Assembly (NCBI GenBank): GCA_025457815.1
Contig: JALOTQ010000001.1
Coordinates: 17-64,016, forward strand
DNA from: Thermoplasmata archaeon
GTDB lineage: Archaea; Thermoplasmatota; Thermoplasmata; UBA10834
Length of the DNA: 64,000 nucleotides
Direction: 5' to 3'
Positions 1 to 2,798 of this stretch are shown here, piece by piece. The notes beneath the pieces were generated by a model. The model saw only the letters and a program-made list of their open reading frames with translations. It made no database searches and was not told where the DNA came from. Position numbers and translations under genes: made by a program. Positions within the stretch are counted from its first letter, which is position 1. Each line of letters opens with the position of its first letter.

Positions 1-327
1 GTCACGGCCGTCTCTGAGCGCGAGGCGCAGTTCGAGTTCAGGTTCACGGTCAGCTACATGGGCGTGGGAATGATCAAGATCGAGGGCCGGCTTGCCTGGG
101 ACGGCGACGCCAAGACGCTGTCCACTCAATGGGGCCAGACGAACCAGCTTCCCAACGAGGTCTTCGGGCCTGTGCTCACCGCGATCTATGCCAACTGCAT
201 GCCCGCCGCGATAATCTCCGCGAGGGACCTTGCGCTCCCTCCGCCGTTACCGCCGCCTCAGTTCCAGGGGCAGCCCCAGCAGAAACCGAGCAGCAAGGAC
301 AAGGGCAGGTCAATGGAAGTAGCGTGA
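1..327 (+). CDS. Hypothetical protein, 5'-truncated by the window edge (C-terminal 108 aa visible; Pro/Gln-rich tail)
   Basis: Frame 1 is open from position 1 with no stop until 325-327; the ORF track shows only the ATG-started part 58..327. Converges on the minus-strand gene ending at 348. No recognisable family. Confidence 0.35.
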   Translation, partial: VTAVSEREAQFEFRFTVSYMGVGMIKIEGRLAWDGDAKTLSTQWGQTNQLPNEVFGPVLTAIYANCMPAAIISARDLALPPPLPPPQFQGQPQQKPSSKDKGRSMEVA

Positions 328-347: not shown

Positions 348-2798
348 TCACCTTATGTGGTCCAGCGAGAACGAGCCGATCGTGACTGAGGCTTTGGACG
401 CGGAGTATCTGATGAACGCTCGGGACTGCACGTCGCAGATGCCCTTCACTGACAGGAAAGTGTTCAGGTTCTCCACCTTGAACTCGATCATGCCATCCAT
501 CAGCGAGCCTATCATCTGTATCTCCTGCTCGCCATGGACGCCCTTCTCGATGGTGTACATCGCGACGGCGCGGTCTCTCTTCCTCCTGCCGACGACCGGG
601 CTTAGGAACCTGAAGGCCGTCCCTGGGTCGAGGTAGGCAATCAGTGTGGAGATCGATCTGAACGCGACCCTGTAGTACTCGTGCTTGTCCTTGAAAGTCT
701 TCGATGCGCTCTCGACCGCCTTCTGTATGGACTCGTAGTCCGTTGGAGCTTCGATGTAGTCGGTGTACGGGTCCTGCGTTTCGTCGCCCATGCTCCTCGA
801 ATATGCGTCGATGTACCGGACGAGGCCCAGCTTCTCATACTCCTCGTAGCCCGAGACAACGAATCCCATCTCCTCGCGTATCTCCTTCGGGGTCTTCTCC
901 GTCAGGATCCACATCGCTGGAATCCCTTTCTTCAGCCCCTCGGCGATGAACACGCTCATCAGGACCTCCTTCCCGGTGAACGGCGGGCCATAGACGAGGA
1001 CGTTTGAGCCGAAGGGTATGCCTCCGAGGAGCAGGTCGTCGAGCCTGGTTGTGCCCGTCTTGATCTTCTCCTGCTTGAACTCCAGCATACGGTCCTGCTC
1101 GCGTTTCTCGATCTCCTCGGAGATGACGCCCTGTTCCCTCATCCGGAGCTCTTCCTCTTTCGACGCGAGGTACTTCTCCTTGTTCCTGATCTCCTCTTCC
1201 TTGGCGTTCACCTCGGCCTTCAGCTCCTCGAGGCGTTTCTTGAGAGTGAGTTCGTCCTGGGAACCGAGTTCGGCCTTGGTCTGGGAAACCTTCTTGAGCT
1301 CCTCTTGGAGGAGCTTCTCGCGGAACATGAGGTCCTCTTCGCGCCTGAGCATCTCCTCCTCCTTGTAGCGCATCGGCTCCCTGACCTTCTGCAGCTCCTC
1401 TTCGCGTATCTTGAGGTCCTCCCTCAGCCTCTGGGCCTCCTGTTCCCTCACCGCCAACGTCCGCTCGAGCCTCTGGGCATCCTCGACCTTTCGCAGCAAC
1501 TCCTTGTCGATGCCCTTGCCCGTTCCGCCGGATATCTTCAGCATCTCGTCCTTCTGCTTGATCGTGACCTCGGCCTCGGCCATCCTCGCCTCGAGTCCCT
1601 GGATCTTCGCCACCAGCTCGAGCTCCTTCTGCTCGTACTCGGCCAGCCTCTGGGTCGACACCGAATCAGCCCTCGGCTCTGCCAGCGTGACCGTTCCGGC
1701 CAGGGCACCCTGGCTCAAAGCCTCCTCCTTCGAGAGGAGCTGTCTCTGCATGGCGTCGAGCTCGGCCTGCCTTTCGACAAGCGACAGCTCTAGCCGCTTC
1801 AGCTCCTGGGCCTCTGGCGGCAGTTCCTGGACCCCACTCTCGAGCTTCTCCTTGAGCATCGAGCTGGACTGTTCGAGCTGCATGATCCTGAGCTCCAGCC
1901 GCTCCCTCTGGGCCATCTCAGACGCGAGGGTGTCCGCGAGCGCCTTCTGGTCGGTCTCCGAGCCCTGCTGGTTCTTGATGAACTTGATGACCGCTATGCT
2001 CCCCCGCTTGACGTTATCCAGCTCCTCCTCGAGCTGCTTGGTCCTTAGGCGTTCAGACTCGAGAATGCCTTTGGTCCTGGCGAGCTCTTCGACCACCGCC
2101 TGTGGGTCGAACTCGCCCGATTCGAAAATCCTCAGCTTCTCCCTCAGGGTCTCCCTGAGCTGTATCAGCTCGGCCTCTCTGGCGAGCAGCTCGTTCGGAC
2201 CGATCGGGTGCGCGGGCGTCGGCTCCGCAGTCCTGGTCTCCTCGAGCCAGACGTTCACGTCTTCCTCCTCCCCGGCAAGCCATCTTGCCAGAGAGTCGTC
2301 CCTGGGGGCTTCCTTGTTGGCCACGGTCGCCTCTGGCTGCGGCCTCTCGTCGCCGGATAGCCACTGGTCCAGGTCGTCCTGTTCGCCTGACAGCCAGCCG
2401 GCCAGCGAGGTATCCTGCGGCTTCCCGAGACTTCTCGCGCCCTCGATTATCTTGGCCGCGAGCCTCTCGCCGATGCCCTTGACTGAAGAGAGCTCCTCGA
2501 CGCTCGCCTTCTGGACATCCTCCACAGACCTGTAGCCGGCCTCGTGGAGCGTCTCAGCCTTCGCTTCGCCCACGCCGGGGATCTGCCTGAGCACCTCGAG
2601 CCCGGAGTCGCCTTTGTCCTGACCGTTGCCCGTTTCCTCAGAGCCGTCAGACTTGAGGCTGCTGTAGCAGTGGTCGCACTTCGCCGAGCCAACAGGCGAG
2701 ATGGTGCCACAGATGGGGCAGGTTACTCCGTCCTCCGGAGGTTTGCTATCGTCTGGCATCTGCTCTCCTAGATCGAACCTGATGGGTTGGGGGAACAC
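348..2798 (-). CDS. Large multidomain protein: N-terminal zinc ribbon (CPICG...CDHC), helix-hairpin-helix motif (IPGVGEAKAE...VKGIGERLAAKI), ~480-aa coiled coil rich in E/K/L/R, and a C-terminal KaiC/RecA-like ATPase domain
   Basis: 816-aa ORF. The C-terminal 250 aa resemble KaiC/RAD55-type (COG0467) ATPases, but the Walker A reads GPPFTGKE, i.e. Glu in place of Ser/Thr. The HhH and CxxC..CxxC motifs are read directly. An alternative start MPDDSKPP lies at 2759. Confidence 0.6.
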   Translation of the reverse strand: MFPQPIRFDLGEQMPDDSKPPEDGVTCPICGTISPVGSAKCDHCYSSLKSDGSEETGNGQDKGDSGLEVLRQIPGVGEAKAETLHEAGYRSVEDVQKASVEELSSVKGIGERLAAKIIEGARSLGKPQDTSLAGWLSGEQDDLDQWLSGDERPQPEATVANKEAPRDDSLARWLAGEEEDVNVWLEETRTAEPTPAHPIGPNELLAREAELIQLRETLREKLRIFESGEFDPQAVVEELARTKGILESERLRTKQLEEELDNVKRGSIAVIKFIKNQQGSETDQKALADTLASEMAQRERLELRIMQLEQSSSMLKEKLESGVQELPPEAQELKRLELSLVERQAELDAMQRQLLSKEEALSQGALAGTVTLAEPRADSVSTQRLAEYEQKELELVAKIQGLEARMAEAEVTIKQKDEMLKISGGTGKGIDKELLRKVEDAQRLERTLAVREQEAQRLREDLKIREEELQKVREPMRYKEEEMLRREEDLMFREKLLQEELKKVSQTKAELGSQDELTLKKRLEELKAEVNAKEEEIRNKEKYLASKEEELRMREQGVISEEIEKREQDRMLEFKQEKIKTGTTRLDDLLLGGIPFGSNVLVYGPPFTGKEVLMSVFIAEGLKKGIPAMWILTEKTPKEIREEMGFVVSGYEEYEKLGLVRYIDAYSRSMGDETQDPYTDYIEAPTDYESIQKAVESASKTFKDKHEYYRVAFRSISTLIAYLDPGTAFRFLSPVVGRRKRDRAVAMYTIEKGVHGEQEIQMIGSLMDGMIEFKVENLNTFLSVKGICDVQSRAFIRYSASKASVTIGSFSLDHIR

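Follow-up and report, generated by a model that had tools for sequence, protein, structure and literature searches.

A widespread coiled-coil protein of Thermoplasmata archaea with a degenerate KaiC-type domain and a convergent partner gene: a candidate non-catalytic scaffold

Cyanobacterial KaiC is a double-domain autokinase and ATPase. In archaea, KaiC-family proteins are known to associate with type IV pilus loci (PMC4858521), and ArlH (FlaH) binds both the ATPase ArlI and the coiled-coil rings of ArlX or ArlCDE (PMC8978795); the binding of ATP by FlaH requires K33 and D122 (PMC5019145). The CdiP pilus of Cuniculiplasma, equipped with two ATPases and a split platform and devoid of an accessory of the AapX type, appeared puzzling to those who described it (PMC12448462). 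The locus considered here lies at the beginning of a stretch of 64,000 nucleotides from a Thermoplasmata archaeon (GenBank assembly GCA_025457815.1, contig JALOTQ010000001.1, positions 17 to 64,016), referred to below as the window; its main gene encodes a real, strongly conserved and uncharacterised protein of Thermoplasmata archaea, whose probable role is that of a scaffold and not of an enzyme, possibly in the service of a neighbouring pilus machinery (Table 1).

The main gene corresponds to an open reading frame of 816 codons on the minus strand (348..2798 in its GTG-extended form), present in the list of open reading frames and in translation exactly as the earlier sequence-only reading had placed it, with the exception of the start codon, which needs to be shifted to codon 14. 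Because the position of Met14 is the start in 21 of the 22 homologues of a 23-sequence alignment, and because a Shine-Dalgarno-like GGAG element precedes the ATG at nt 2759 by 6 nt, the revised coding sequence of Table 1 is the likely one and the true start is probably this ATG, located 39 nt downstream of the start annotated earlier; residue numbers given here are those of the 816-codon frame, with Met14 as the probable first residue. Full-length identities range from 59 to 96% among the best 120 clusters listed (of 202 proteins found), which argues that neither the frame nor its domains are due to chance. A sequence scan gave no transmembrane segment for the encoded protein, and neither the window nor any of the flanks contains a second copy or a paralogue. 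An anti-phage defence system was discarded as a candidate, PADLOC having returned no matches for the protein, for its neighbour u144 (see below) or for their relatives.

Table 1. Features of the main gene and of the adjoining u144 gene; positions refer to the window.
Feature	Position (nt)	Strand	Remarks
u144, 3' part	1..327	+	108 codons + stop; orphan gene of ~144 aa (tblastn, translation)
Revised coding sequence, coiled-coil/pseudo-KaiC protein	348..2759	-	803 aa + stop; probable start at ATG, codon 14
Single-domain KaiC-type RecA fold	351..1064	-	residues 579-816; also matches DUF7504
Walker B-equivalent strand YRVAFRS	654..674	-	Arg714 replaces the Mg-binding Asp
Deviant P-loop GPPFTGKE	966..989	-	residues 604-611; Lys610 kept, Glu611 replaces Ser/Thr
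Segmented coiled-coil/helical stalk	1056..2198	-	residues 201-581; heptad/composition scan, AF2 secondary structure
Invariant motif NVKRGSIAVIKFIK	1974..2015	-	within the second stalk helix
Acidic linker with two Trp-motif pairs	2229..2411	-	LAGWLSGE..LDQWLSGDE / LARWLAGEE..VNVWLEE; net charge -12
(HhH)2 domain, RadA N-terminal/eL32 type	2433..2597	-	residues 68-122
C4 zinc ribbon VTCPICGTISPVGSAKCDHCYSS	2658..2726	-	four conserved Cys; weak Pfam DZR

The family is common, comprising 154 representatives of 50%-identity clusters at E<1e-30; all members with a named organism belong to the Thermoplasmatota, Methanomassiliicoccus included. Databases describe its members in general terms ("KaiC/GvpD/RAD55 family RecA-like ATPase", "ATPase domain-containing protein", "DUF7504 family protein"), and a stand-alone relative (P0180) covers the full DUF7504 profile (E 5.3e-19). 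No characterised member was found, nor any paper on the family in the literature searched, which did not comprise the article by Makarova et al. (mBio, 2017), reportedly on archaeal KaiC-like hubs; the earlier remark that the architecture was not recognised as a described family is in line with this result. All the domains named in that reading (zinc ribbon, helix-hairpin-helix, coiled coil and KaiC-like domain) are found, in that order. The further claim of an unusual four-domain architecture stands insofar as no description of the arrangement was found, but the family is not rare and the N-terminal head does not define it; the family core consists of acidic Trp-motif pairs, coiled coil and pseudo-KaiC domain, the zinc-ribbon/HhH head being clade-specific.

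C27, C30, C41 and C44 never vary in the 23-sequence alignment and are conserved to at least 90% in an alignment of 78, a conservation which backs the zinc ribbon proposed earlier, though matches to Pfam DZR are weak (E 0.1-0.3); short strands are predicted there by AF2. The helix-hairpin-helix, also proposed earlier, is confirmed by a match to HHH_5 (E 7.6e-16), with two G-h-G hairpins, both intact, and by its best PDB matches, the N-terminal domain of RadA and haloarchaeal eL32 (E around 1e-7); NCBIfam RadA models align to residues 69-125, where the protein thus carries the N-terminal (HhH)2 module of RadA/Rad51. Both zinc ribbon and HhH are absent from the Methanomassiliicoccus orthologues, one of which (L072) has a short basic N-terminus, and the L086 orthologue combines a zinc ribbon with a Lys-rich tract where the HhH would be; the N-terminal module is variable, yet mostly of basic or nucleic-acid-binding type.

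The acidic linker that follows (residues about 125-200) contains four Trp motifs, whose W135, W146, W173 and W184 are invariant in the 23-sequence alignment; the W-W spacing of about 11 residues is found again in distant family members, and one pair is retained by the Methanomassiliicoccus orthologues. From residue 201 onwards extends a stalk of ~380 aa, rich in E, L, R and K and with a heptad signal, which is composed of seven helices of 26-79 residues (188-213, 219-263, 270-311, 315-354, 367-411, 419-497 and 504-568 in the numbering of the model) split at junctions containing Gly or Pro. The motif NVKRGSIAVIKFIK is invariant in both the 23- and the 78-sequence alignments and is found in the L039, L045 and L086 orthologues, and is missing from those of Methanomassiliicoccus. 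Neither a CxxC hook nor a hinge domain is found in the stalk; the full-length AF2 model is weak as a whole (pLDDT 65.6, pTM 0.31), too weak for the topology of the arm to be read from it. Of the ~480-aa, SMC/Rad50-like coiled coil described in the sequence-only reading, the helical region with its heptad signal is confirmed; the length was overestimated, and seven segments over ~380 aa do not resemble SMC.

The C-terminal domain is a RecA fold of the KaiC/PH0284 type, as had been proposed and as agreed upon by Pfam KaiC (PF06745, E 5.6e-18, residues 579-778) and an AF2 model of the domain (pLDDT 85.4, pTM 0.83); it also scores 58.6 bits against DUF7504 (PF24336; gathering threshold 27) over residues 597-772. 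The deviant P-loop, verified by translation and by alignment, does not follow the canonical GxxxxGK[S/T] pattern, Glu611 being aligned with the Thr of both RecA and KaiC. The further motifs are altered as well: "RVVIDS" of KaiC (8zn5_B) is aligned with "RVAFRS", placing Arg714 at the Walker B Asp, and "FEE" with "TEK", so that the catalytic pair becomes Glu634/Lys635, the second Glu being replaced by Lys. The catalytic impairment suggested earlier from the P-loop holds, and the defect extends to Walker B and to the second catalytic Glu.

Among 140 distant representatives of the family, 121 have a GK[E/D] P-loop, and Lys610, D664 and R793 are conserved in 128, 140 and 126, respectively; the Walker B position is occupied by R in 35, L in 33, E in 12, F in 9 and D in only 7. 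By these alignments GPPFTGKE is a hallmark of the family. At the first catalytic-Glu position, that of Glu634, most relatives have Asp. Since rare relatives keep a canonical GK[ST] together with hhhhDS, the dead state is derived and has since been maintained by selection. A salt bridge between E611 and R714 replacing Mg2+ was considered and is not supported as a family feature, the two positions showing no covariation (E/L 32 versus E/R 31). The GRRKRD loop of the RecA-like domain is conserved in the 23-sequence alignment, and the domain retains 77-95% identity where whole proteins are 59-91% identical, a degree of constraint which suggests many contacts.

The convergent partial gene noticed earlier at the start of the window is real and represents the C-terminal 108 aa of u144, whose stop codon is separated from that of the main gene by 20 nt. 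In all 68 loci with enough flank u144 is present and convergent (median gap 49 nt), and the pair is retained in L086 despite unrelated flanks; u144 is the tightest genomic partner of the main gene. It has no match in Pfam, NCBIfam or PDB; in a profile search the best 120 matches listed are unannotated proteins of ~140-180 aa which give no functional lead, and the named organisms among them are Thermoplasmata or Methanomassiliicoccales. A SecB-like chaperone was also considered for u144, on account of a resemblance noticed by eye, and rejected (hhalign probability 0.2% against E. coli SecB, and no PDB match to the u144 profile). Farther off, a 55-aa frame (sm55) lies upstream, 24 nt before a DUF531 gene on the same strand, with which it is probably operonic; in view of this spacing, and of HdrA, which in this clade stands between sm55 and the main gene, it was set aside as a functional partner and is used as a synteny marker only.

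Outside the window lie the remainder of the conserved partner gene u144 and an adjoining type IV pilus operon. The latter comprises a pilin with a class III signal peptide, two ArlI-like ATPases and a pair of ArlJ-like platform proteins of half size, in the same layout as the published Cuniculiplasma CdiP pilus; it is of pilus type and not of archaellum type. An ArlI-like ATPase gene is found at 6 kb or less in 54 of 56 species-level loci, down to 42-50% identity, and the pilus operon is a frequent neighbour. The main gene forms a transcription unit apart from it, the convergent u144 lying in between. The housekeeping genes on the opposite side (Lhr, FtsJ, PurM and DUF531) are equally syntenic in the same genomes, and for this reason the adjacency of the operon may reflect inherited gene order. 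In L039, L043, L045 and L086 the pair is kept and the pilus operon is absent within 10 kb; a sister family of ~900-aa proteins, probably a positional orthologue, has the nearby sm55 gene in common and no pilus genes nearby. A universal link with the pilus is rejected on these grounds, and the link itself has been downgraded because the sister family and several clades do without the operon. As to a DNA-binding role in pilus function, the head would have no obvious use there and is dropped in Methanomassiliicoccus.

Taken together, the preferred reading, still a tentative one that may well be wrong, is that of a soluble protein of the cytoplasm which serves as scaffold or adaptor and has no enzymatic role, paired with u144 and perhaps accessory to a CdiP-type pilus. 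The non-enzymatic part of this reading is based on the loss of the Mg-coordinating Ser/Thr, of the Walker B Asp and of the second catalytic Glu. The C-terminal domain may still form a ring or another oligomer, by analogy with its hexameric relatives PH0284 and KaiC, and would at most bind nucleotide or phosphate as a conformational ligand, ATP hydrolysis being presumably absent. From this oligomeric hub the segmented coiled coil would extend for ~380 aa to the acidic Trp-motif pairs, which are probably short helices on which a partner docks; the zinc-ribbon and (HhH)2 head that this clade has in addition is predicted to bind double-stranded nucleic acid irrespective of its sequence. The protein would act together with u144, the two genes being arranged tail-to-tail in all the genomes examined. 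With lower confidence, it may be a cytoplasmic accessory of the adjoining CdiP-type machine and, by analogy, could unite in one chain the role of ArlH, which forms a KaiC-like ring beneath the ATPase, and that of ArlX/ArlCDE, which form a coiled-coil ring. A bolder version, a hub-and-spoke cytoplasmic assembly of a kind not recognised before in Thermoplasmatota, in which rings of the dead KaiC domain are nodes, coiled coils are spokes and DNA-binding heads fasten the chromosome to the two-ATPase pilus at its base, is very unlikely; there, u144 would be the coupling subunit and the pilus would gain a DNA-handling platform, e.g. for DNA uptake or export.

Other readings have to be weighed against the scaffold. 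Rather unlikely is a protein of DNA metabolism or of the nucleoid without any pilus role, such as a mediator resembling a RadA paralogue or a chromosome tether, which would bind DNA through the zinc-ribbon/(HhH)2 head, and perhaps the basic GRRKRD loop, and bridge or organise it by means of the coiled coil. The closeness of the HhH to the RadA/Rad51 N-terminal domain, the two stretches matched by the NCBIfam RadA model (consistent with head and core), the conservation of the loop and the dispensability of the pilus operon as a neighbour all agree with such a role, as does the L086 orthologue, whose Lys-rich tract in place of the HhH would also bind polyanions; however, the Methanomassiliicoccus orthologues keep the remainder of the protein without a recognisable DNA-binding module, genes for repair, replication or segregation do not recur next to the main gene with any consistency, the Walker motifs needed for recombinase-type activity are missing, and the RadA model scores far under its cut-off (52 versus 259). 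Kinship with the chromosome-organising ATPases SMC and Rad50, which goes back to the earlier comparison of lengths, is hardly credible and is effectively excluded at the level of the fold: the sole NTPase fold, that of the RecA/KaiC domain, lies in one piece at the C-terminus and is not a split ABC ATPase, SMC and Rad50 do not appear among the Pfam and NCBIfam matches, and the helical region consists of short segments with neither hinge nor zinc hook and is joined to a domain lacking the catalytic motifs. All that speaks for such kinship is that a long helical stretch occurs in one protein with a domain of P-loop fold and a DNA-binding head.

Quite unlikely is a functional KaiC-like signalling switch. 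Its deviant P-loop would bind ATP through a direct contact of Glu611 with the metal, and the oligomeric state and the binding of partners would be toggled by slow hydrolysis or by autophosphorylation as in KaiC, in ArlH and in the proposed archaeal KaiC "signal hubs". The retention by selection of Gly and Lys in the P-loop (128 of 140) and the invariance of Asp664 speak for it, as do the near-universal Arg793, a putative arginine finger, the retained His755, a putative gamma-phosphate sensor, and the persistence of Glu634; moreover, ArlH works as a switch although no ATPase activity can be measured for it (PMC8978795, PMC5019145). Yet FlaH loses ATP binding when the Walker B Asp alone is removed (PMC5019145), whereas most members of the present family have Arg, Leu or Phe at that position and have lost the Ser/Thr besides; nor is any KaiB-like, MEDS or kinase/phosphatase partner found nearby.

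Should the scaffold reading be correct, a whole archaeal class would carry a conserved pseudo-enzyme, a KaiC ring that has become a structural hub bearing a coiled-coil stalk, and thus an archaeal counterpart of pseudo-ATPase platforms such as Elp456; it would also put forward a specific protein as the cytoplasmic accessory that the CdiP pilus of Thermoplasmata is missing. The conservation of a GK[E/D] P-loop without the Walker B Asp offers a clean test case for what becomes of a P-loop after catalysis is lost. The practical gain is modest, consisting of a well-defined family, its partner gene u144 and testable predictions, and not of a demonstrated new mechanism.

Among known systems, the likeness to Elp4/5/6 (PAXNEB), the RecA-like pseudo-ATPase ring of Elongator, is remote, the latter being eukaryotic, hetero-hexameric, tRNA-associated and without a coiled coil. 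In RadA/Rad51 and in the archaeal RadA paralogues (aRadC, e.g. SSO2452) no counterpart is seen of the ~450 aa of linker and coiled coil that here separate head and core, and the Walker motifs of the main protein, unlike theirs, are degenerate; the RadA equivalogs remain below cut-off (NF003301, 52 versus 259 bits; TIGR02236, 48 versus 361). Cyanobacterial KaiC has GKT, the EE pair and the Walker B Asp, whereas the main protein is single-domain with degenerate motifs and neither KaiA nor KaiB is present here; the Ser/Thr, Walker B Asp and second catalytic Glu that it has lost are all found in KaiC and RecA where the sequences align. The earlier likening to FlaH is apt as regards impairment, but the defect is more severe in the present case: ArlH/FlaH has preserved GK(S/T) as well as the Walker B Asp, on both of which its ATP binding depends, and the main protein has neither. 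ArlH/FlaH is moreover a protein of ~230 aa encoded inside arl operons, whereas the main protein has 803 aa and its gene has ArlI-like and ArlJ-like genes within 6 kb in 54 of 56 loci, though in a different transcription unit and not in some clades, and the ArlH models score far below cut-off (NF052589, 18.6 versus 215 bits; PRK06067, 40 versus 194); ArlX has a transmembrane anchor (PMC8978795), which the main protein lacks, and the system served by ArlH and ArlX is the archaellum, the neighbouring one here being a pilus. DUF7504 (PF24336) and DUF7090 (PF23365), which no paper in the literature searched mentions, are domain families of unknown function; the C-terminal domain exceeds the DUF7504 threshold, and neither family covers the coiled coil, the Trp motifs or the head. 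PH0284 and PH0186 of Pyrococcus (PDB 2DR3 and 2ZTS) are stand-alone, single-domain KaiC-like ATPases of about 240 aa, whereas in the protein described here the corresponding domain forms the C-terminal end of a chain of 803 residues.

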